NCBI GenBank assembly: GCA_043825735.1
Contig: JBDRRP010000053.1
Location: 1-63,429, forward strand
Reading direction: 5' to 3'
DNA from: Pseudomonadota bacterium
GTDB lineage: Bacteria > Desulfobacterota > Desulfobacteria > Desulfobacterales > JBDRRP01
DNA: 63,429 bases
Shown: in pieces, positions 34,861-62,576 of the stretch
How positions within the stretch are numbered: the stretch's first letter is position 1
Layout of the letters: the number at the start of each line of letters is the position of its first letter
The notes under the pieces: model-generated
Database searches by the model: none
What the model was told of the DNA's origin: nothing
The model's input: only the letters and a program-made list of their open reading frames with translations
Translations under genes and position numbers: made by a program

Positions 34861-36477
34861 ATGAAACCCATTGTGGAATGCGTGCCCAATTTCAGCGAAG
34901 GGCGAGATACGGAAACCATAGACGCCATCGCCGCCGCCATCCGCGATACCGCAGGCTGCACCCTGATCGATGTGGACCCCGGCGCCAGTACGAATCGCAC
35001 CGTTGTCACATTCGTGGGGACACCGGCGGCGGTTATCGACGGCGCGCTCAATGCCGCCAGGGTGGCCAGTCGGCGGATTGACATGGCCCGGCACAGGGGC
35101 GCGCACCCGCGCTTCGGGGCTATGGACGTGTGCCCTTTTGTGCCGGTTTCCGGCGTTACCATGGAAGCGTGCGTGGATATTGCCAACACCTTCGGACGGC
35201 AACTGGCCGAAGAACTTCAGGTGCCGGTGTATCTTTACGAGCACGCAGCCAAAGAAGACTACCGTCGCAAGCTGTCGGACGTGCGTCAGGGGGAATACGA
35301 GGGGCTGGCCGAGCGACTGGCCGATCCCCGCTGGCAGCCCGATTTCGGGCCGGCCCGGCTGGTGCCCGCCTGGGGCGCTACCGCCGTGGGCGCCCGCATG
35401 TTTCTCATCGCCTACAATGTGAACGTTCTGGGTACTGCCAACCAGGCCCACCGGATCGCAATGAACCTGCGAGAGGCCGGCCGGGGACCGGATGAACCCG
35501 GTCGGTTCAAGGCCGTCAAGGCGATGGGGTGGTTTGTGGACGACGCAAACGTGGCCCAGGTGACGGTCAATTTGAACGATTATCGGGAGACCAACATCCA
35601 CACGCTCTATGAGACTGTCAAAGAAGAAGCCGCCGCCCTCAGGCTGGCGGTGACCGGCTCGGAGATCGTGGGCGTCGTGCCGAGGGAAGCGATTCTGATG
35701 GCTGCCGAGCACTACATCGAGAAAGAAAATCTTTTCATACTGGACGAGGATCAGAAGGTGCGCCTGGTTGTCGACCGCCTGGGGCTGAGCGCCGCGGCGC
35801 CGTTCAATCCTAAGGAGAAAATCATCGAATACATCGTGGCCGAGCCCCCGGAAGAGCCTTTGGCCGGCCTCACCCTGCGCGGGTTTGTGGATGCGGTGGC
35901 GGCCCGCACCGGGGCGCCGGGCGGTGGATCGGTATCGGCGGCCCTGGCTGCGCTGGGAACCGGGCTGGGCGCCATGGCAGCCAAACTCACCTTCGGGGTG
36001 CGTAAATTCGAGCACCTGGACGCGCGGATGCGCGAGATCATCCCGCCGCTGCACGAAGCCAGCAAGGCGCTCATTCCCATGGTGGACGCCGACAGCAGCG
36101 CCTTTAACGCCTACATGGCGGGGCTGGCCATGCCCAAAGACACGGACCTTCGCAAGGCGGCGCGCGCGGCAAAGATGCAGGAAGGCCTCAAGAGCGCCAT
36201 CCGCGTGCCGCTGAAAACCATGCAACTGGGCGACGGTGCCTGGGAGGCCATGTGCGCGGTGGCCGAAGTGGGCAATATGGCCTGCAAGTCCGATATCCAG
36301 GTGGGGGCCCGGGCGCTGGAGGCAGGCATCTGGGGCGCGTACCAGAACGTGCTGATCAACATGGCCGGGATCGAGGATGAAGGGTTTAAAGGAGAGATCC
36401 TGGCCGAGGCCGGGGCCATGGCCGAGCGGGCCAAAGTGATGTGCGCCCGGGTGCTGGAAATACTGGAGAAGCGATAA
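34861..36477 (+). CDS. ftcD: Bifunctional glutamate formiminotransferase / formiminotetrahydrofolate cyclodeaminase
   Basis: VECVPNFSEG, HPRFGAMDVCPF, GEYEG, APGGGSV and GAYQNVLIN motifs. Confidence 0.95.
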   Translation: MKPIVECVPNFSEGRDTETIDAIAAAIRDTAGCTLIDVDPGASTNRTVVTFVGTPAAVIDGALNAARVASRRIDMARHRGAHPRFGAMDVCPFVPVSGVTMEACVDIANTFGRQLAEELQVPVYLYEHAAKEDYRRKLSDVRQGEYEGLAERLADPRWQPDFGPARLVPAWGATAVGARMFLIAYNVNVLGTANQAHRIAMNLREAGRGPDEPGRFKAVKAMGWFVDDANVAQVTVNLNDYRETNIHTLYETVKEEAAALRLAVTGSEIVGVVPREAILMAAEHYIEKENLFILDEDQKVRLVVDRLGLSAAAPFNPKEKIIEYIVAEPPEEPLAGLTLRGFVDAVAARTGAPGGGSVSAALAALGTGLGAMAAKLTFGVRKFEHLDARMREIIPPLHEASKALIPMVDADSSAFNAYMAGLAMPKDTDLRKAARAAKMQEGLKSAIRVPLKTMQLGDGAWEAMCAVAEVGNMACKSDIQVGARALEAGIWGAYQNVLINMAGIEDEGFKGEILAEAGAMAERAKVMCARVLEILEKR

Positions 36478-40859: not shown

Positions 40860-41333
40860 ATGCGAAGAAAAGACAAACAGGTCAGTGAACGCTTGGAGAT
40901 AGACGCCATTATCCGGGGGTGCCAGGTCTGCCATCTGGCGATGGCCGTGGACAATATTCCCTATGTGGTGCCCCTTTGCTTTGGCTATGACGGCACCAAT
41001 TTGTACGTCCACATGGCGGGCTCGGGGAAAAAAGTCGATTGCCTGAAGGCCAATCCCCGGGTCTGCTTTCAAATGGAACGCGGCGTGCGCCTGGTCTCGG
41101 AAGGCGCTGACCCGTGCAACTGGGGCTTTCATTTTGAAAGCGTCATCGGATCGGGCTTGGCCGAAGAACTGAACGGCGACGAAGACAAGGCCGGCGCGCT
41201 TGGCTGGATTGTCAAACAATATGCCGGAAAGGTCGTCGGTCCGGTGCCCCCGTCCGCCGGTCTTCGGGTCTGGCGCATTGCCATTGATGAGATCAGCGCA
41301 AAGCGCTCTCCGCCGGCGCCGGCAGCGCCGTAG
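40860..41333 (+). CDS. Pyridoxamine 5'-phosphate oxidase-like / NimA family flavin-binding protein
   Basis: MRRKDK, PYVVPL.FGY, G.K...L..NP.VCF and ESVIG.G motifs; GAGGTG RBS. Confidence 0.87.
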   Translation: MRRKDKQVSERLEIDAIIRGCQVCHLAMAVDNIPYVVPLCFGYDGTNLYVHMAGSGKKVDCLKANPRVCFQMERGVRLVSEGADPCNWGFHFESVIGSGLAEELNGDEDKAGALGWIVKQYAGKVVGPVPPSAGLRVWRIAIDEISAKRSPPAPAAP

Positions 41334-41380: not shown

Positions 41381-42616
41381 TTACGGGTACACCGGGAACC
41401 GCCGGCACAGGTCCGCCACCTGGGATTTGACCTTCTCCTGCACTGCCGGATCTTCCGGTTGCGACAGGACCGCATCGATCATATCAGCGATCCGGACCAT
41501 TTCAGGCCGCCCCATGCCGCGGGTGGTGATGCCCGCGCTGCCCAGGCGAAGACCGGAGATAGCCCCCGGTGTCAGGGCATCGGCGGGGATCACATTGCGG
41601 TTCAGAACGATCCCGGCAGATTCCAGGGCTGTTTCGGCCGCGGCACCCGTCAGCCCCGTGGCGGTCAGGTCGACCAGCACCTGGTGGTTGTCAGTGCCGC
41701 CGGAGACGATACGGTAGCCCCTTTCTTCGAGTGCTTCGGCCAGAGAAACCGAATTCTCCAAGGTTTTCTTCTGAATATCGACAAACCAGGGCTCCCCGGC
41801 CAATTTGAAAATGAGGGCCTTGGCCGCGATCAGGTTCACGGCGCTGGTACCCTGGCACCCCGGGAATACGGCACTATTAAGGCGCTTACCAAATGTTTCC
41901 TTGGCCAGAATGACACCCCCACGGCCGCCCATCATGGTTTTGTAAGTCGTGAAAGTGACAAAATCGCAGCAGTCAACCGGGCTGGGGATCACCCTGGCGG
42001 CCACCAGTCCGGCCAGGTGCGCCATGTCGGTAAAGGCATAAGCGCCGACGTCTTTGGCGATGGCGGCGATCTTTTCGTAATCGATCAGTCGCGGGTAGGC
42101 GCTGGCCCCGGCGACGATCATCTTTGGCCGGACCCGCTCGGCCAGCACCCTGATTTCATCGTAATCGATGCGCTCGGTTTTCGGGTCCACGCGGTAATGA
42201 GTGAAATCGAAGCATTTGCTGGTGATGGACGCCCTGTCGCCGTGTGACAGGTGGCCGCCGTAGGGAAGGCCCATGGAAAGTATTTTGTCACCCACGGTGA
42301 GCACCGAAAAATAAACGGCCAGGTTGGCCGAGGTTCCGCTGTGGGGCTGTACATTGACGTACTGGGCGCCGAAAAGTGCTTTCCCGCGCCGGACGGCTAT
42401 GTTTTCGATTTCGTCGACAACGGCGCAGCCGGCGTGAAACCGTTTTCCGGGATATCCTTCGATGGTTTTGGTGTTGAGCACCGATCCGAGCGCTTCCATG
42501 ATCGAGCGGGGGCAGTGGCTTTCAGCAGCGATCAGATCCAGGGTGTTTTCAATGCGGGCCGCTTCTTTTTTTACCAGCGCAGCCAGCTGGGGGTCATCTT
42601 TTTCCAGAAATTGCAT
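41381..42616 (-). CDS. glyA: Serine hydroxymethyltransferase-family PLP enzyme with a non-canonical active site
   Basis: NVQPHSG, GGHLSHG, GASAY, DMAH, SGGTDNH and TTRG are conserved. LIAAES, KTIEGYPGKRFH and TTYKT deviate from canonical LIASEN, KYAEGYPGKRYY and TTHKT. The symbol indicates family only. Confidence 0.85.
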   Translation of the reverse strand: MQFLEKDDPQLAALVKKEAARIENTLDLIAAESHCPRSIMEALGSVLNTKTIEGYPGKRFHAGCAVVDEIENIAVRRGKALFGAQYVNVQPHSGTSANLAVYFSVLTVGDKILSMGLPYGGHLSHGDRASITSKCFDFTHYRVDPKTERIDYDEIRVLAERVRPKMIVAGASAYPRLIDYEKIAAIAKDVGAYAFTDMAHLAGLVAARVIPSPVDCCDFVTFTTYKTMMGGRGGVILAKETFGKRLNSAVFPGCQGTSAVNLIAAKALIFKLAGEPWFVDIQKKTLENSVSLAEALEERGYRIVSGGTDNHQVLVDLTATGLTGAAAETALESAGIVLNRNVIPADALTPGAISGLRLGSAGITTRGMGRPEMVRIADMIDAVLSQPEDPAVQEKVKSQVADLCRRFPVYP

Positions 42617-42655
42617 TCTGCTTCCTCCCAGGGGGCTATCCACACCCGCCACGGA

Positions 42656-43360
42656 TCATCCGCCCAGATACGCCTCGCGCACCCGGCTGTCTGAAATGAG
42701 TTGGGCGCCGGTGCCTTCCAGTACCACCGCGCCGACTTCCAGCACATAGGCGTAGCTGGCGATCTTGAGTGACGCGTAGGCGTTTTGCTCCACCAGCAGC
42801 ACGGTTTTGCCCTGCTTGTTGATCGTTTCGATGATCTCGAACACCTCTTTGACCAGCTTGGGAGCCAGGCCCAGGGAGGGCTCGTCGAGCATGATCAGAT
42901 CCGCGGCGCTCATCAGCGCCCGCCCCAGGGACAGCATCTGCTGCTCGCCGCCGGACAGTGTGCCGCCCTTTTGATCCTTACGCTCGCGCAATATGGGGAA
43001 AAGGTCAAATATCCACTGGATGTCCTTGGCGACGCCGGGCGGGTCATTGCGGCTGTAGGCCCCCAGCCTCAGGTTGTCCAGCACCGACAGGTGGGCGAAG
43101 ATTTTGCGGCCCTCCGGTGACATGCTGATACCCGATTTGACCACCGCCACCGGGCCCAGATGGGTGATGTCGTTGCCTTTATAGGTGATTTTGCCGGATT
43201 TGTCCTTTATCAGGCCGGAGATGGCTCTCAGCGTGCTGCTTTTGCCGGCGCCGTTGGCGCCGATCAGGGTGACGATCTTGCCCTGTGGAACGGTGATGGA
43301 CAAGCCCTTCAGGGCGTGGATGCCCTCATAGAAGATGTTGAGGTCCTGAATGCTAAGCAT
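42656..43360 (-). CDS. livF: Branched-chain amino acid-type ABC transporter ATP-binding protein
   Basis: GANGAGKS, PEGR, LSGGEQQM, DEPSLGLAP and VEQN motifs. Confidence 0.9.
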   Translation of the reverse strand: MLSIQDLNIFYEGIHALKGLSITVPQGKIVTLIGANGAGKSSTLRAISGLIKDKSGKITYKGNDITHLGPVAVVKSGISMSPEGRKIFAHLSVLDNLRLGAYSRNDPPGVAKDIQWIFDLFPILRERKDQKGGTLSGGEQQMLSLGRALMSAADLIMLDEPSLGLAPKLVKEVFEIIETINKQGKTVLLVEQNAYASLKIASYAYVLEVGAVVLEGTGAQLISDSRVREAYLGG

Positions 43361-44138
43361 ATTGAACCGCCTCCTCTCCGAGATAGGCCGCGATCACCTT
43401 GGGGTTGGATTTGATCTGATCCGGAGAGCCTTCGGCGATGGTCTCGCCATAATCGAGGACCCAGATGTGCTCGCAGATGCCCATGACCACCTTCATGTCA
43501 TGCTCGATCAGCAGGATGGTGAGCGAGAACTGGTCGCGGATCCGGCGGATAAAATCCATCAGTTTGCGCGTCTCATTGGGATTCATCCCGGCCGCCGGTT
43601 CGTCCAGCAGCAGAAAGGACGGGTCCGTGGCCAGGGCCCGTGCGATTTCCAGTCGGCGCTGAGCCCCGTATGGCAGGCTGGTGGATTTTTCATCGGCCAG
43701 CGCGCGCAGCCCCACCACTTCGAGCAGGCTCAGGGCTTTTTCCTTCAGCGCCTTTTCTTCGCGGATGCTGGCGGGCAGTCCGAAAAGGGCGTGCCACCAG
43801 GTGGTTTTCTGGCGCAGGTGACCGCCGATCATGACATTTTCCAGCACGGTTTCATTCTTGAAAAGGCGGATGTTCTGAAATGTGCGCGCGATGCCGCTCC
43901 TGCACACCCGGTGGGGGGGCTGCCCGGTGATGTCCTGCCCCTGGAAAATCACGCTCCCCTGGGTGGGCATATAAAAACCGGTGATCATGTTGAAGCAGGT
44001 GGTTTTTCCGGCGCCGTTGGGCCCGATCAGGCCGACAATGCTTCCCCGCGTAATCGCGGCGCTGAAATTGCCCACGGCGGTCAGGCCCCCGAAACGCATC
44101 GTCAGCGCTTTTGTTTCCAGAATCGTTTCCGGTGTCAT
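43353..44138 (-). CDS. livG: Branched-chain amino acid-type ABC transporter ATP-binding protein
   Basis: FGGLTAV, GPNGAGKTT, ARTFQNIRLF, LPYG and DEPAAG motifs; ATG 44138 overlaps the livM stop. Confidence 0.9.
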   Translation of the reverse strand: MTPETILETKALTMRFGGLTAVGNFSAAITRGSIVGLIGPNGAGKTTCFNMITGFYMPTQGSVIFQGQDITGQPPHRVCRSGIARTFQNIRLFKNETVLENVMIGGHLRQKTTWWHALFGLPASIREEKALKEKALSLLEVVGLRALADEKSTSLPYGAQRRLEIARALATDPSFLLLDEPAAGMNPNETRKLMDFIRRIRDQFSLTILLIEHDMKVVMGICEHIWVLDYGETIAEGSPDQIKSNPKVIAAYLGEEAVQYA

Positions 44139-45178
44139 TTTGCCGCACCTCGCTTGCCGAGCCGCCGGGCCAGTGCGTCCCAGGTGATCTCTCGTGTTCC
44201 CATCAGCCCCTCCCGGCGGAACAGGATGATAAACAGCAGCGCCAGGGAAAAGACCACCATGCGCATGCCCGGAACCCCTTCGATGTAAACATCGCCGATG
44301 CTGATCGGGTTTTCCACGAACCGAAGCCATTCCAGCAGGATCGTGATGCCGATGCCCGCCAGGACTGATCCGGTGATGGACCCCAGGCCGCCGGTCACCA
44401 CGATCATCAGAATGTTGAAGGTCAGAATGAACAGGAACATTTTTGGGTCGATGGTGGTCAGCAGGCTGCCCAGCAGGGCGCCGCCCACGCCGGCAAAAAA
44501 TGCGCCCATGGCAAAGGATATCAGCTTGTACTTGAAGACGTTGATGCCCATGGCCTTTGCCGCCGTTTCGTCGTCGCGGATCGCCTTTAAGGCGTTGCCG
44601 AAGTTGCTGTTGACGATGCGCATGACAAAATAGAGGGTCAGCAGGCACCACCCGAAATTCCACCAGATATTGGCGTAGTCCGGAATCCCCTTGAAGCCCA
44701 GGGCGCCGTTGGTCAGCCGGGGGATGTTGTTGGCGAACACGCGCACGATTTCGGCAAAGCCGAGGGTGGCGATGCCCAGGTAGTCGTCCCCCAGCCGCAA
44801 CAGCGGGATGCCCACCAGGATACCGGCCACGCCGGCTAAAATCCCGCCCAGCAGTACGGCCACGAAAAAGGGCGCCTGAGCGGCCTGGACCCATGGGTAG
44901 GGCGGGTCGAGGATGAACAGCATTTCCTTCTGGGCCGGGGTCATGATGAGAATGGAGCAGACATAGGCGCCGATGGCCATGAACCCGGCGTGACCGAGGC
45001 TGAACATGCCGGTGAACCCGTAAATCAGGTTCAGGCTCAGCGCCAGGATGATATTGATGGCGATCAGGTTGAGGATCTGGATTTTATAGCCGTCCAGGTG
45101 GCCTTTTGCCAGCCAGAGAAAGAGCCCCAGAACCGCCACCGCCACAAAATTGAGGATTACTTTCGTCTTGCGGTCCAT
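44135..45178 (-). CDS. livM: Branched-chain amino acid-type ABC transporter permease
   Basis: SLGHAGF, DYLGIATLGF, AIRDDE.AA..MG and GGLGS motifs. Confidence 0.88.
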   Translation of the reverse strand: MDRKTKVILNFVAVAVLGLFLWLAKGHLDGYKIQILNLIAINIILALSLNLIYGFTGMFSLGHAGFMAIGAYVCSILIMTPAQKEMLFILDPPYPWVQAAQAPFFVAVLLGGILAGVAGILVGIPLLRLGDDYLGIATLGFAEIVRVFANNIPRLTNGALGFKGIPDYANIWWNFGWCLLTLYFVMRIVNSNFGNALKAIRDDETAAKAMGINVFKYKLISFAMGAFFAGVGGALLGSLLTTIDPKMFLFILTFNILMIVVTGGLGSITGSVLAGIGITILLEWLRFVENPISIGDVYIEGVPGMRMVVFSLALLFIILFRREGLMGTREITWDALARRLGKRGAAK

Positions 45179-46071
45179 CACACCTTGTCCTCCAGTTTCG
45201 CGCCGAACAGCCCAGTGGGTTTGAACAGCAGGATGAAAATCAGCAGGAAAAAGGCAAAGGCATCCCTGTAACCGGCCAGGTCGGGGAAAAAGGCGACCAG
45301 CAGAATCTCGACAAATCCGAGTATCAGGCCGCCGATGACGGCCCCCTGGATCGAGCCGATGCCGCCGAACACCGCCGCGATGAAGGCCTTGAACCCCGGG
45401 ATGACGCCCATGACCGGCTGCAACTGTGGGTAGCGAAGCGCCCACATGATGCCCGAAGCCGCTGCCAGGGCGGACCCGATGCCGAAGGTCAGGGCGATGA
45501 CCCGGTTTACGTCGACCCCCATGATATAGCTCGTCTCGATGTCCTTGGAGATGGCCCGCATGCCCAGCCCCGGTTTTGTACGGTAGACGATATAGATCAG
45601 CCCGAGCATGAGCAGAAACGACAAGACGGGCACGAACAGGGTCAGCGGCAGGATGCGCACCTCACCCACCACGATGATCCGCTCCATCCATTCGGGCCGG
45701 TAAACCGCGCGCGGAATGGCGGAGAAAACGACGATGGCCAGGTTCTGCAGGAAAAAGGAAACACCGATGGAGCTGATCAGCGCCGAAATCCGCGGCGCGT
45801 CCCGCAAGGGGCGATAGGCGACCCGGTCGACGAAGACGCCGACGCTGGCCGTCACTGCGATGGCGCCCACAATCGCCAGGGGCCAGGGAAGGTGAAACAG
45901 GGTGACGGCCCAGAAGACGAAATAGGCCCCCAGCATGAATATCTCGCCGTGGGCGAAATTGATCAGCCGCAGGATGCCGTACACCATGGTGTACCCGATG
46001 GCGATCAGGGCGTAGAGGCTCCCAAGGGTCAATCCGTTCAGCGAGTGCTGTAGGAACATGGCAAAGCTCAT
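45178..46071 (-). CDS. livH: Branched-chain amino acid-type ABC transporter permease
   Basis: YALIAIGYTMVYG..INFAHG and KAFIAAVFGGIGS motifs. Confidence 0.9.
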   Translation of the reverse strand: MSFAMFLQHSLNGLTLGSLYALIAIGYTMVYGILRLINFAHGEIFMLGAYFVFWAVTLFHLPWPLAIVGAIAVTASVGVFVDRVAYRPLRDAPRISALISSIGVSFFLQNLAIVVFSAIPRAVYRPEWMERIIVVGEVRILPLTLFVPVLSFLLMLGLIYIVYRTKPGLGMRAISKDIETSYIMGVDVNRVIALTFGIGSALAAASGIMWALRYPQLQPVMGVIPGFKAFIAAVFGGIGSIQGAVIGGLILGFVEILLVAFFPDLAGYRDAFAFFLLIFILLFKPTGLFGAKLEDKV

Positions 46072-46104
46072 GAAGAGCTCCTATCGTGGGCCGGTCATGA
46101 TGAA

Positions 46105-46128
46105 GGGGGAAGCCCGGGGGCTTCCCCC
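46105..46128 (-). other. Strong intercistronic stem-loop after the binding-protein gene
   Basis: GGGGGAAGCC-loop-GGCTTCCCCC with no U tract; probable mRNA stabiliser. Confidence 0.55.
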
Positions 46129-46157
46129 GCGAAGCAACGGTCGAACCACTGCATTTT

Positions 46158-47291
46158 CTACAGTTCGGGAGTGATGCTGCCGATGTAGGTTTTCTTTCCG
46201 TCCTTGATAATGACCAGACCGACCGGTTTCTCGGCATCGTGGGTCGCGTTGATGGTGGTCGCCCCGGTGACGCCTTCAAAATCCTTGGTGGTGGCCAGCG
46301 CCTTGGTAATGGCTTCGCTGTCGGTCTTGCCGGCTCGTGTGATGGCATCCAGCAAGATCACGTAGGCGTCATATCCCAGGGCCGCGTTCACGTTGGGCTC
46401 CTTGCCAGGATACGCTTTGATCCAGTTGTCGGTGAATTTGCGGGCGACCGGGTTCATCTCCTTCATGGACGGGTCGTAGGGGAAGGTGGTGTGGATGAAG
46501 CCTTCGACGTCCTTGCCGCCGATTTCAACGATCTTGGGGTTGTCCATGGCATCGCCGCCCATGATCTTGAATTTTCCGCCCAGTTCGTTGACCTGCTTCA
46601 TGATGATGGCCCCTTCGGCAAAGTAGGAGGGGATGAACAGCAGGTCGGGTTTCTGGCTGATGATTTCGGTCAGCTGTGCGGTAAAATCCTGGTCACCGGA
46701 CTGGTACTTCAGGTTGGTGACCACCTTGCCGCCCATTTTTTCGAAGGACCGCGTGAAGAAACTGGCAAGACCCACGGAATAGTCATTGGCCACGTCCACC
46801 AGCAGGGCCGCTTTTTTCAGGCCCAGCGTTTTATAGGCGTAGGTGGCGGCGCCGGCGCCCTGGAAGGGATCGATGAAGCACACCCGGAAGACGTAATTTT
46901 TGCCCTGGGTCACCAGCGGGTTGGTGCAGGAGGTGCCGAGCATGGGAACCTTGGCCTTTTCGGCCACTTCGCCGCCGGCCATGGCCAGGGAGCTGCCATA
47001 GGTGCCGATGATGGCGTGGGCCTTTTCCTTGCTGATCAGCCGTTTCACGGCATTGGCCGATTCCACTTTATCGGATTTGTTGTCCACGATGAACAGCTCC
47101 ACCTTTTTGCCCAGAACCGTCGGGAACTCCTTGTGGGCCATCTGAAGGCCCTCGAGCTCGAGCTGGCCGCCATAGGCGTTTCCGCCGGTCAGGGGCAAAA
47201 AGACACCGATCCGGACGGTGTCGCCGGCCGCCATGGCAGTACCGCCGAAAGCGAACAACAGGATCAGACTGACTGCGATGAGCTTTCTCAT
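46158..47291 (-). CDS. Liv-family ABC transporter substrate-binding protein
   Basis: Signal peptide; IGVFLPLTG, TNP.VT, FRVCFIDPFQG and DFTAQL motifs. Confidence 0.92.
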   Translation of the reverse strand: MRKLIAVSLILLFAFGGTAMAAGDTVRIGVFLPLTGGNAYGGQLELEGLQMAHKEFPTVLGKKVELFIVDNKSDKVESANAVKRLISKEKAHAIIGTYGSSLAMAGGEVAEKAKVPMLGTSCTNPLVTQGKNYVFRVCFIDPFQGAGAATYAYKTLGLKKAALLVDVANDYSVGLASFFTRSFEKMGGKVVTNLKYQSGDQDFTAQLTEIISQKPDLLFIPSYFAEGAIIMKQVNELGGKFKIMGGDAMDNPKIVEIGGKDVEGFIHTTFPYDPSMKEMNPVARKFTDNWIKAYPGKEPNVNAALGYDAYVILLDAITRAGKTDSEAITKALATTKDFEGVTGATTINATHDAEKPVGLVIIKDGKKTYIGSITPEL

Positions 47292-47437
47292 TGTGACGCC
47301 TCCCTTGTTTCAGTTTTGAATAAAATGGGTGGCAGGGCGCCTTCGGGGTGGCGTGTCAGGGGGTGACCACCGGAAAGCGGGTTGCCTGCGCGCAGCGCAT
47401 CTCGATGTTCCGAGGGTCGGTGCGTCGGTGGATTTTG

Positions 47438-47453
47438 AGCAATTTCAGTGCCA
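47438..47453 (-). promoter_or_regulatory. Sigma54 (-24/-12) promoter of the liv-SHMT operon
   Basis: Minus strand TGGCAC-TGAAA-TTGCT, an exact match to TGGCAC-N5-TTGCW, about 150 nt upstream of the start codon. Confidence 0.75.
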
Positions 47454-47781: not shown

Positions 47782-47848
47782 AAAGCCATATATAAAGCCA
47801 TATGAAAATATTGACAAAAATATTTTCGCGCCGTATCATCAACCCAAA
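47782..47848 (+). promoter_or_regulatory. Sigma70 promoter and direct-repeat operator of the TA operon
   Basis: AAAGCCATAT twice (47782, 47794); TTGACA(47811)-17 bp-TATCAT(47834); ATG at 47848. Confidence 0.65.
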
Positions 47849-48141
47849 TGAAAAAGCGATCTGATTTCGAGTGGGATTCCGCTAAAGATTTGATAAACCA
47901 GCAAAAACACGGTGTCTCATTTGCTTTTGCGCAGCTTGCGTTCTTTGATCACCAGCGTATTATCCTCGAAGATCTGGAGCACAGCGAGGATGAAAACCGA
48001 TATTACTGCCTTGGTAGGGTCGCGGATGGAATCCTGACTGTGAGATTCACCCATCGAAAAGGCAAAATCAGAATCATTGGCGCCGGGTATTGGCGTAAAG
48101 GGAAAACGATATATGAAAGGGAAAATAAAATACAAGGATGA
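47848..48141 (+). CDS. brnT: BrnT family toxin
   Basis: FEWD..K...N..KHGVSF, E.RY..LG and T.R...IRII motifs. Confidence 0.9.
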   Translation: MKKRSDFEWDSAKDLINQQKHGVSFAFAQLAFFDHQRIILEDLEHSEDENRYYCLGRVADGILTVRFTHRKGKIRIIGAGYWRKGKTIYERENKIQG

Positions 48142-48340
48142 ACCGATGGGAAAGGTGAAGGTAATTTCCGACTTCCTTCCATCGCCGGAAGAACTTGCCC
48201 TGAAAGATGAGACTGTCAAGGTCACGATTGCCCTCAGCAAGGCGAGTGTTGATTTTTTTAAAAATGAAGCAAAAAAATATAATACGCAGTATCAAAAAAT
48301 GATCCGCAGGTTGCTGGACGAATATGCCGCCCATCAATAG
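48113..48340 (+). CDS. CopG/BrnA-like ribbon-helix-helix antitoxin
   Basis: DFLPSPEEL, KVTIALS..SVDFFK..A and YQKMIR motifs; overlaps the toxin 3' end. Confidence 0.82.
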   Translation: MKGKIKYKDEPMGKVKVISDFLPSPEELALKDETVKVTIALSKASVDFFKNEAKKYNTQYQKMIRRLLDEYAAHQ

Positions 48341-60174: not shown

Positions 60175-61320
60175 CTACACAAAGATGCGCTGCACCCTGC
60201 TGGTCAGTGCCGATGTCACTTCGTAGTTGATTGTCCCGAGTTGCTCGGCGACCGCTTCGGCTGAGATTTCAGCGCCGTTCTGGCGGCCGAAGATCACCAC
60301 CTCGTCTCCGGTGCGGGCCTCGGGGATATCTCCCACATCGATCATGGTGTGGTCCATACAGACCCGCCCCCGGATGGGCGCGCGGCGGCCGTGGACCAGC
60401 ATTTCGCCGATGTTGCTGAGGCGGCGGCTGAAGCCGTCGGCATAGCCGACAGGCACCGTGGCGATGGCGGTGGGACGTTTCGCGGTCCAGGTCATGCCGT
60501 AGCTGACGGTAAATCCGGCGCCCACGCATTTTAGCTGCACGATCCGTGATTTGAGGGTCATGGCCGGAGTGAGCCGGAGTCTGGACAGGTTCACTTCATT
60601 TGAAGGTCTGAGTCCGTAGAGGGCGATGCCGGCGCGCACCATGTCCAGGTGTGTTTCAGGGTGGTCGATGATTGCCGCGCTGTTGGCGGCGTGCTTGATG
60701 GGGATATGGACGCCGGCTGCGGTGAGGCGGTCGATAAATGCGGTGAAGCGTGTAAATTGGCGGTGGGTGAAATCCTTGTCGGCACTGTCGGCGGCGGCGA
60801 AATGAGTGCTCAGCCCTTCGAGGATGATGCCCGGAAGGGCGGCGATGGTGCGCGCAGCGGCCACGGCCTCTGACGGCACGGGAACCCCCGGGCCGTTGTC
60901 GGGAAAAATTCCCAGACGCCCCATGCCGGTATCCACCTTGAGATGAAGGTGAATGGGCTGCCCCAGGGTCACGGCATGTTGCGAGAAAGCCATGGCGGTC
61001 TCTACATCGAATACGCTCTGGGCCAGGTCGAGACGGACCAATGCTTCCGCATCTTGAGGCGCGGTGTAGCTAAAGATCAGAATGGGGGCCGAGATGCCTG
61101 CCTGGCGAAGCGATATCGCTTCCCCGAGCCGGGCAACGCCTAAGACACTGGCCCCGGCGGCCATGGCGGTGCGGGCCACTTCCGCGGCGCCGTGGCCGTA
61201 GGCATCGGCTTTCACCACTGCCATCAGCCGGGCCTCGGGGCGGGTGATGCGTCTCAACTCGCGGGTATTTTCAGCAATGGCGGAAAGATCGATTTCCGCC
61301 CAGACCAGTGGCTGCGTCAT
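60175..61320 (-). CDS. alr: Alanine racemase
   Basis: AVVKADAYGHG, HLKVDTGMGRLG, VSYG, GYADG and GRVCMD motifs. Confidence 0.96.
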   Translation of the reverse strand: MTQPLVWAEIDLSAIAENTRELRRITRPEARLMAVVKADAYGHGAAEVARTAMAAGASVLGVARLGEAISLRQAGISAPILIFSYTAPQDAEALVRLDLAQSVFDVETAMAFSQHAVTLGQPIHLHLKVDTGMGRLGIFPDNGPGVPVPSEAVAAARTIAALPGIILEGLSTHFAAADSADKDFTHRQFTRFTAFIDRLTAAGVHIPIKHAANSAAIIDHPETHLDMVRAGIALYGLRPSNEVNLSRLRLTPAMTLKSRIVQLKCVGAGFTVSYGMTWTAKRPTAIATVPVGYADGFSRRLSNIGEMLVHGRRAPIRGRVCMDHTMIDVGDIPEARTGDEVVIFGRQNGAEISAEAVAEQLGTINYEVTSALTSRVQRIFV

Positions 61321-61463: not shown

Positions 61464-62576
61464 TTACAGCATGGTCGTCACATCCACGTAATCCAGCCCG
61501 AAGGCCTCGGCCACACCCTTGTAGGTGACCTTGCCGTTGACCACGTTGGCGCCCAGAAGGATTTCCCGATTTTCTTTCATGGCGGTCTTCCAACCCTTGT
61601 TGGCGATCTGCACGGCGTAGGGCAGGGTGGCATTGGTCAGGGCCACTGTCGATGTTCTGGCCACGGCGCCGGGCATGTTGGCAACGCAGTAGTGGAGCAC
61701 GCCGTCCACCTCGTAGACCGGGTCGTCGTGGGTGGTGGCCCTGGAGGTCTCGAAACAGCCGCCCTGGTCGATGGCCACGTCCACCAGGACCGAGCCCTTT
61801 TTCATGGTGGCGAGCATCTCGCGGGTCACCAGGCGCGGGGCCTTGGCGCCGGGGATGAGGACCGCACCGATGACCACGTCGGCTTCCTTCACCAGCTTGC
61901 GGATGGTGGCCGGGGTGCTCATGAGCGTAAAGCAGTTGCTGGGCATGACATCGCTCAGGTACCGGAGCCGGTCCAGATCCATGTCCAGCAGATAGACTTT
62001 GGCGCCCAGGCCGCAGGCCATTTTGGCCGCATTGGTGCCCACCACGCCGCCGCCGATGACCACCACCGTGCCGGGTTCGACACCGGGGACGCCGCCCAGC
62101 AGCAGTCCCTGCCCCCCTTTGGAGATTTCCAGGAACTTGGCGCCCTGCTGAATGGCCATGCGGCCGGCCACTTCGCTCATGGGGGTGAGCAGCGGCAGGC
62201 TGCGGTCTGTCTTCTGGATGGTCTCGTAGGCGATGCAGACGGCGCCGCTCTTGATGAGCGCCTGGGTGAGCGTCTGCGCCGCGGCCAGATGAAGATAGGT
62301 AAAGACGATCTGGCCCTTGCGGATAAGATCGTACTCCGGGGGCATGGGCTCCTTGACGTGCATGACCATGTCGGCCTCTGCGAAGATCTCGGCGGCCGTG
62401 GCCACCATCCGAGCGCCGGCCTGTTTGTATAGCTCGTCTTCAAAGCCGCTGCCCACTCCGGCGGATTTTTCAACCAGCACGGTGTGCCCGTTTTGTTTCA
62501 TGACTTCAGCGCCTGCCGGCGTCATGGACACCCGGTATTCTTCCTTTTTGATTTCCTTGAGAATGCCTACGATCAT
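61464..62576 (-). CDS. ald: Alanine dehydrogenase
   Basis: [32 protein letters not shown] and [10 protein letters not shown] motifs. Confidence 0.97.

Follow-up and report, generated by a model that had tools for sequence, protein, structure and literature searches.

A fully substituted alpha carbon blocks transamination and oxidative deamination, and the published cases of breakdown of alpha-substituted amino acids that we found all come from aerobes. Here we describe a serine hydroxymethyltransferase (SHMT)-like gene with a changed substrate site that lies behind a Liv-type transporter in a member of the Desulfobacterales (assembly GCA_043825735.1, contig JBDRRP010000053.1, positions 1 to 63,429; this whole 63,429-nucleotide stretch is called the window). 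The closest described enzymes are relatives of SHMT. In the alpha-methylserine hydroxymethyltransferases (mSHMTs, EC 2.1.2.7), Thr60 and His70, which are Tyr55 and Tyr65 in SHMT, are donor-specificity residues, and Y55T allows SHMT to use D-Ala and D-Ser (PMC6411801; PMC4761611), as the initial annotation of the window had stated. For the TRIS pathway, removal of 2-hydroxymethylserine was demonstrated with the whole cluster, not with the purified enzyme (PMC10848231). PbzB forms 2-hydroxymethylserine and accepts L-Ser, D-Ser, or Gly for this, with L-Ser preferred; it loses its activity upon the T68Y/H78Y exchange (PMC10098953), and FmoH in vitro mainly converts 2-methylserine to D-Ala (PMC13351049). 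AibC of Rhodococcus wratislaviensis is a 2-amino-2-methylmalonate decarboxylase that yields L-Ala and has no hydroxymethyltransferase activity (PMC7782822). On the uptake side, the rhizobial transporters Bra (Liv type) and Aap both carry the alpha,alpha-disubstituted alpha-aminoisobutyric acid (PMC2978685), which shows that substrates of this kind are within reach of a Liv-type system.

The protein in the window belongs to a real and widespread lineage of uncharacterized SHMTs, with alpha-substituted amino acids as their probable substrates, in anaerobes. With a probability of roughly 55%, we think that it catalyzes the tetrahydrofolate (THF)-dependent cleavage of 2-methyl- or 2-hydroxymethylserine to D-Ala or D-Ser plus methylene-THF. 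The chemistry and the residue signature are known; in the open-access papers that we searched, we found no description from sulfate reducers, and the initial annotation likewise knew of no such pathway there. The dsrA gene of the host scored above its cut-off.

Active-site residues of the SHMT paralog

The gene (41381 to 42616, minus strand) encodes 411 amino acids (aa) and matches NF000586 with 501 bits against a cut-off of 335. It probably starts at the ATG at 42616, behind a GGAGGA ribosome site; the GTG at 42652 chosen by the open reading frame finder is probably too early, because most homologs have 411 aa. A model predicted from 49 clade sequences (pLDDT 94) reached a TM score of 0.97 to SHMT structures. 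The protein shares with canonical GlyA (EC 2.1.2.1) the fold along with the pyridoxal phosphate (PLP) and carboxylate residues, at 46 to 49% sequence identity.

Residues were numbered by pairwise alignment to Escherichia coli GlyA (K-12 record). The window protein carries S35A, N37S, Y55T, Y64F, Y65H, Q100S, H228Y, G263T, P264S, K346R, and F357G and keeps E57, H126, D200, H203, K229, R235, N347, and R363. All substitutions listed in the initial annotation are borne out by this alignment, as is the retention of the PLP lysine (K229), E57, and the carboxylate-binding Arg (R363). Canonical GlyA has Y55 and Y65 (YAEG..RYY), a His before the PLP lysine, and G263-P264, whereas the window protein has T55, H65, Y228, and T263-S264. 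The 125-127 GHL loop and an aromatic residue at 64 are kept and the folate loop is altered; E57, the GHL loop, aromatic 64, and N347 are residues that we take to form the folate site.

The 120 nearest homologs all have T55, E57, F64, H65, Y228, T263, N347, and R363, but just 80 have A35 and 6 have S37. S35A and N37S, which the initial annotation covered in its change of LIASEN to LIAAES, are therefore not family-wide but secondary changes, and the reading based on Y55T/Y65H holds. All 49 aligned clade members have H65, Y228, T263, E57, N347, and R363, with Thr or Ala at position 55.

The mSHMT motif given in the initial annotation proved real. The TRIS mSHMT (Pseudomonas hunanensis Teo1, WPE29849.1), translated from its plasmid, has T55, F64, H65, T228, and S263, as do plasmid proteins of Paracoccus, Ensifer, and Ruegeria; the Mesorhizobium protein has Ser at 55. 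The window protein has in common with this group T55, F64, H65, a residue other than His before the PLP lysine, and a residue other than Gly at 263, and it possesses the T55/H65 pair together with the PLP lysine, Glu57, Asn347, and Arg363. It differs from the TRIS enzyme in overall sequence (46% identity) and in having A35, S100, Y228, and T263 in place of S35, Q100, T228, and S263. The Thr55/His65 pair is also shared with PbzB, FmoH, and AsmD, whose motif is TAEG..RYH; in the TIEG..RFH of the window protein the T and H match, while A56 and Y64 do not. The exact TAEG..RYH occurs in the subclade of comparison loci L013 and L149. His is retained at 228 in PDB entry 7qcw, which is probably PbzB, an assumption of ours since the paper gives the entry as 7QWZ.

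Companion SHMTs and distribution of the clade

We searched the source genome with tblastn (G000 below, with C numbers for its contigs; L, G, and P numbers denote comparison loci, genomes, and proteins) and found one other SHMT, on C92, which is 48.5% identical to the window protein and has a fully canonical site. It sits in a block fabG-fabF-rpiB-glyA-deaminase-nrdR-ribD (neighbor names read from translations) and groups with the GlyA proteins of the order in the tree, as the window protein does not. Because this canonical glyA is present, the window SHMT is a paralog, and the view that it is not the housekeeping GlyA stands, the protein being in a clade of its own.

Of 300 other genomes in the order, 58 have a member of this clade: 57 match at an E value of 1.1e-150 or better (the next was 3e-135), and in G159 the match runs off a contig end. 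We extracted 55 of these places as regions, and all 55 show the altered site. Across a phylum-wide sample, 6 of 300 genomes reached the score range of the clade, all six with the altered site, and an altered-site gene also occurs in Anaerolineae and in one Myxococcota record. Where homologs are named in databases, they are called serine or glycine hydroxymethyltransferase.

Each of the 58 clade-bearing genomes has another SHMT-like gene of ordinary type. These are bacterial-type in 39 (59 to 72% identical to the canonical query), joined by G254 with an intact site; archaeal-type in 12, with the intact site read in 9 and the other 3 being 83 to 93% identical to a read one; and GcvT-fused in 6, with the site intact. 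The archaeal-type and GcvT-fused genes overturned a count in which the paralog had seemed the only SHMT of 18 of the 58 genomes.

Some companions are unusual in themselves. The GcvT-archaeal-like SHMT fusions (L226-L231, from G085, G223, G010, G227, G258, and G094) run in one frame of ~890 to 940 aa, one of them cut by a contig end, and are the sole SHMTs with an ordinary site found in those six genomes. Several families of the order without a match to bacterial-type glyA (L213-L220 and L224) have an archaeal-type GlyA, 29 to 35% identical to that of E. coli, with canonical residues. A divergent archaeal-like SHMT homolog at L221:3932-5299 and L222:3844-5238 has A55, W64, F65, and a Gly before the PLP lysine.

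Phylogeny

In a quick tree of 85 proteins, the clade was placed apart from the proteobacterial mSHMTs, but with this sparse set a constrained tree that joined the two outscored the quick free tree by 19 log units (approximately unbiased test, p-AU 0.68). When 1.84 billion representatives were searched with a profile, 57 of the top 150 matches had a change at 55, 65, or 228; many of these were of the T55/H65/Y228/T263 type, among them nonribosomal peptide synthetase (NRPS) fusions and proteins of Streptomyces, Kibdelosporangium, and Burkholderia. Two plasmid relatives adjoin NRPS genes. Addition of 28 T55/H65-type representatives, many of them long-branched, gave a denser tree of 86 rows, in which P0121 and plasmid proteins L172-L176 stood in for the mSHMTs and PbzB, FmoH, AsmD, and the assayed Nozaki sequences were not rows.

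In the denser tree the clade had a support of 97.9/99 and was joined at 99.8/100 to a Y228-type group that includes the NRPS-linked T55/Y228/T263 proteins, while the mSHMTs were nested in alphaproteobacterial GlyA (95.6/99). The constrained search for an exclusive group of clade plus mSHMTs, which did not run to completion, gave a p-AU of 0.014, and for one origin shared by all T55/H65 proteins the p-AU was 0.24; when 17 signature columns were dropped and the same three trees were rescored without a new search, their order was unchanged. Convergent origin was not kept as a firm claim, given the better joined tree in the sparse set and the p-AU of 0.24 in the dense one. The window protein thus appears mSHMT-like by its residues, with orthology to the proteobacterial mSHMTs unsupported. 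The separation from housekeeping GlyA proposed in the initial annotation survived; close orthology to the mSHMTs found no support, the identity to the TRIS enzyme (46%) falling within that to ordinary GlyA (42 to 52%).

Altered-site SHMT domains also occur as parts of larger proteins (P0257, P0322, P0365, P0275, P0292, and P0387), fused to a MeaB GTPase, a cytidylyltransferase-kinase, a PhyH dioxygenase, NRPS modules, or a phosphodiesterase.

Organization of the locus

Six co-oriented minus-strand genes, livK-H-M-G-F followed by the SHMT-like gene, span 47291 to 41381, in agreement with the described pairing of a Liv-type transporter with an SHMT-fold gene. The first encodes a 377-aa substrate-binding protein of the LivK/BraC type (HAAT family, Pfam PF13458; 46158 to 47291, minus strand), whose closest solved relative is 3td9 (E value of 6e-98) and whose LivJ/K NCBIfam score was below the cut-off. 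The permeases are of the LivH type (297 aa, 45178 to 46071, minus strand; NF008011, E value of 4e-66, below the cut-off) and the LivM type (347 aa, 44135 to 45178, minus strand), the latter assigned from its translation and from genes 77 to 93% identical at the same position in L001, L007, L008, and L009. Of the two ATPases, the LivG type (261 aa, 43353 to 44138, minus strand) was likewise assigned from translation and position, with 74 to 90% identity in related loci, and the LivF type (234 aa, 42656 to 43360, minus strand) had NF008626 as its top match. The livH, livM, livG, and livF ends overlap, and the SHMT start lies 39 bases past the end of livF.

A sigma54 -24/-12 promoter-like box, TGGCAC-N5-TTGCT, lies at 47453 to 47438 on the minus strand, 162 bases before the livK start, and agrees with the consensus TGGCAC-N5-TTGCW at 11 of 11 positions. 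The genome has 25 such strict boxes where its base composition predicts 6.7, and the chance of one is ~2e-4 per given 500-base upstream stretch. The host has rpoN; no sigma54 activator was seen among the window proteins scanned. Among 13 related upstream regions, some with approximate start positions, the box recurs at the same distance only in L001, and conserved sigma54 control was rejected on this count. For the proposed sigma54-driven uptake operon, the perfect box and rpoN speak locally, but such control is not a feature of the family. Scans for sigma70 promoters and terminators gave nothing above shuffled sequences. In two RNA runs (one sample, contigs only), matches were short pieces of 150 to 260 bases at 97 to 99%.

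Genes for alanine racemase (alr, 60175 to 61320, minus strand; TIGR00492 above cut-off, the sole clear alr match in the genome) and alanine dehydrogenase (ald, 61464 to 62576, minus strand; TIGR00518 above cut-off) lie 13 to 15 kb upstream of livK. Elsewhere the host has two fhs genes, folD, and two L-serine dehydratase-like genes, and a genome search found neither dsdA nor purU. A search of the host for CdhC gave just two 36-position matches and thus does not support a full Wood-Ljungdahl pathway. Its Aap-like transporter (C121) and glycerate kinase (C83) had no telling neighbors.

Gene neighborhoods of the clade

We compared 76 clade loci (2.6 to 21 kb, one duplicate removed) with 81 canonical loci. 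A dsdA, DSD1-like, alr, or ald gene lay within 6 kb in 9 of the 76 clade loci and in none of the 81 canonical ones, amino acid ABC transporter parts in 12 versus 1, and M20 amidohydrolases in 8 versus 0; because the queries were chosen post hoc and the controls were not taxon-matched, these differences are a lean and not a significance test. They fit the catabolic D-amino-acid context that had been proposed for the window gene, as do the individual loci. The gene dsdA is directly downstream in L132, L135, and L139, above the TIGR02035 cut-off, and the TRIS cluster pairs the two genes in this way too, as do plasmids of Mesorhizobium and Alisedimentitalea. Another 8 dsdA regions contained no SHMT. 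In L144 an Aap-like transporter is followed by the paralog and then alr, and the binding protein of this transporter is 43% identical to that beside the Ensifer mSHMT-type gene. L116 has a glycerate kinase, the paralog, and then ald. As with the TRIS mSHMT, the clade gene is a second copy beside amino acid transporters and, in relatives, dsdA; the folD/purU or dsdA neighbors typical of mSHMT genes are absent from the window locus, and the mSHMT hosts, in which folD/purU flank some proteobacterial genes, are aerobic.

Genome-level co-occurrence with ald was set aside as weak support, since ald passed its cut-off not just in 53 of 58 clade genomes but in 106 of 151 order genomes overall. The liv subfamily of the window was found in 12 of 301 genomes. 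It adjoins the paralog in four (G000, G215, G248, and G271) and lies 27 to 31 kb from it on the same contig in two. L001 and L009 also pair the two; in L009 the order is reversed, so the pairing survived rearrangement or arose twice. With 4 of 12 genomes showing the adjacency, a family-wide liv-SHMT operon was rejected, and the liv linkage, the conservation of which the initial annotation proposed to test, is not a family feature.

Two further arrangements recur. One is a conserved cassette in which a DUF3100 membrane protein and up to three M20 amidohydrolases, at least one in each case, accompany the paralog (L013, L014, L015, L021, L125, L149, L158, and L202); it spans three phyla, includes alr in L021, and may release a substrate from an N-acyl, N-carbamoyl, or peptide form. 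The other is seen in the Ala55 subclade (L131, L142, L143, L146-L148, L162, L164, and L171), where an RraA-like aldolase gene, a PF04199 cyclase-family gene, or both come after the paralog.

Proposed reaction and alternative explanations

In the reaction that we favor, Thr in place of Tyr55 and His in place of Tyr65 would open the pocket so that the alpha carbon can bear a second substituent. Import would fall to the Liv/Bra-type ABC system, whose genes are probably co-transcribed with that of the enzyme from the putative sigma54 promoter. PLP would form an aldimine with an alpha-substituted serine such as 2-methylserine, 2-hydroxymethylserine, or a similar compound, the extra methyl or hydroxymethyl group being held in the room left by Tyr55; the hydroxymethyl carbon would pass to THF, and D-Ala or D-Ser would be released along with 5,10-methylene-THF. 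Alr and Ald could then turn D-Ala into pyruvate and ammonium, and the folate one-carbon (C1) pathway (fhs, folD) could take up the carbon from methylene-THF. The route from D-Ala through L-Ala to pyruvate is favored by the lack of dsdA, the alr and ald genes upstream of livK, and the two L-serine dehydratase-like genes, although the presence of ald proves little, as it is common in the order. We infer the reaction, its direction, the substrate, the co-transcription, and the match between transporter and substrate.

Several observations weigh against this cleavage. As PbzB prefers L-Ser over D-Ser and accepts Gly, the signature does not fix a D-amino-acid product, and AibC provides an example in which an SHMT-annotated catabolic gene beside ald can be a decarboxylase. 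The clade departs from mSHMT-type proteins at 35 (mostly Ala), 100, 228 (Tyr, not Thr), and 263, and its sister group in the best tree includes NRPS-linked, presumably biosynthetic enzymes. Most clade loci are orphans in unrelated contexts; 67 of 76 have no D-Ser/Ala gene within 6 kb, and none has a folD or purU neighbor (3 of 81 canonical loci do). The neighbor queries were picked after the loci had been viewed, with controls mostly from other taxa. The dsdA pairing may be one event, since L132, L135, and L139 form one subclade, and dsdA was above its cut-off in just 14 of 301 genomes, 5 of them clade-bearing and G000 not among them. The liv genes adjoin the paralog in only a third of the genomes with this subfamily, and 6 of the 12 have no clade match.

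Some of these points would fit a different PLP reaction of an imported substrate on the SHMT scaffold, such as THF-independent retro-aldol cleavage, AibC-like decarboxylation of an aminomalonate derivative, or racemization, which we regard as unlikely. AibC is the precedent, its gene lying between an amino acid transporter and alanine dehydrogenase. It is described as a 452-aa protein that needs a monooxygenase pathway and gives L-Ala (P0270, used as the AibC query, had 4 matches among 401 actinomycete genomes). An L-Ala product would suit the ald genes that stand without alr beside the paralog in L116 and L132; the clade-specific A35, S100, Y228, and T263, the altered folate loop, and the missing folD/purU neighbors also agree with another chemistry, and the M20 and DUF3100 genes next to 8 of the 76 loci hint at a variety of upstream substrates. 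Against it, the presumed folate residues E57, the GHL loop, aromatic 64, and N347 are kept, and the dsdA and alr neighbors need a D-product. The orphan loci, the 8 of 12 genomes whose liv subfamily has no adjacent paralog, and the acceptance by PbzB of Gly and both serines could instead point to an isozyme of broad specificity or with a clean-up role, acting on internal Gly, L- or D-Ser, D-Ala, and their hydroxymethylated by-products at high methylene-THF flux, with liv as a unit for general amino acid uptake that lies upstream by chance. This we find distinctly unlikely: each clade genome checked has another ordinary-type SHMT-like gene, at least three unrelated transporter types stand beside the gene in different subclades, and in L009 liv comes after the gene, the reversed pairing noted above.

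Operation in the biosynthetic direction, with 2-methylserine or 2-hydroxymethylserine made as a building block for the cell envelope or a small metabolite, is to our mind very unlikely. The grouping with NRPS-linked T55/Y228 proteins, the subclade with the exact published motif, and the glycosyltransferases after the gene in L006 and L199-L201 would be in keeping with it. PbzB, FmoH, and AsmD, however, supply NRPS building blocks, whereas the window gene ends an operon of the uptake type with no NRPS among the window proteins scanned; no NRPS domain was found in the scanned neighbor proteins (133 + 45), and catabolism is the direction indicated by the uptake systems and by D-serine dehydratase, which is irreversible.

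If the cleavage of alpha-substituted serines is correct, a broader role is possible, if doubtful: in about one-fifth of the order, an independently recruited T55/H65/Y228 SHMT lineage might let anaerobes dismantle an unrecognized alpha-substituted amino acid and pass its carbon to folate C1 metabolism with no need for disposal by FolD/PurU. The natural, transamination-resistant compound would then be identifiable through the operon's Liv binding protein. The matching signature in 58 of 300 genomes suggests that a substrate or clean-up reaction of anoxic habitats has gone unnoticed, and it points to a source of false glyA calls. These enzymes may also be natural candidates for alpha-tertiary amino acid synthesis, for which Y55T variants have been engineered.

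Other genes near the operon

A BrnT/BrnA toxin-antitoxin pair lies just upstream of the operon and divergent from it (window 47848 to 48340, plus strand). At the other end, a pyridoxamine 5'-phosphate oxidase-like (Nim-like) gene (40860 to 41333, plus strand) is convergent with the SHMT paralog, and 5 kb past the paralog an FtcD gene (fused glutamate formiminotransferase-cyclodeaminase; 34861 to 36477, plus strand) offers a further entry to folate C1 metabolism. In a genome without the paralog, the same liv subfamily adjoins a racemase/epimerase gene of the enolase superfamily (L188:4359-5666).

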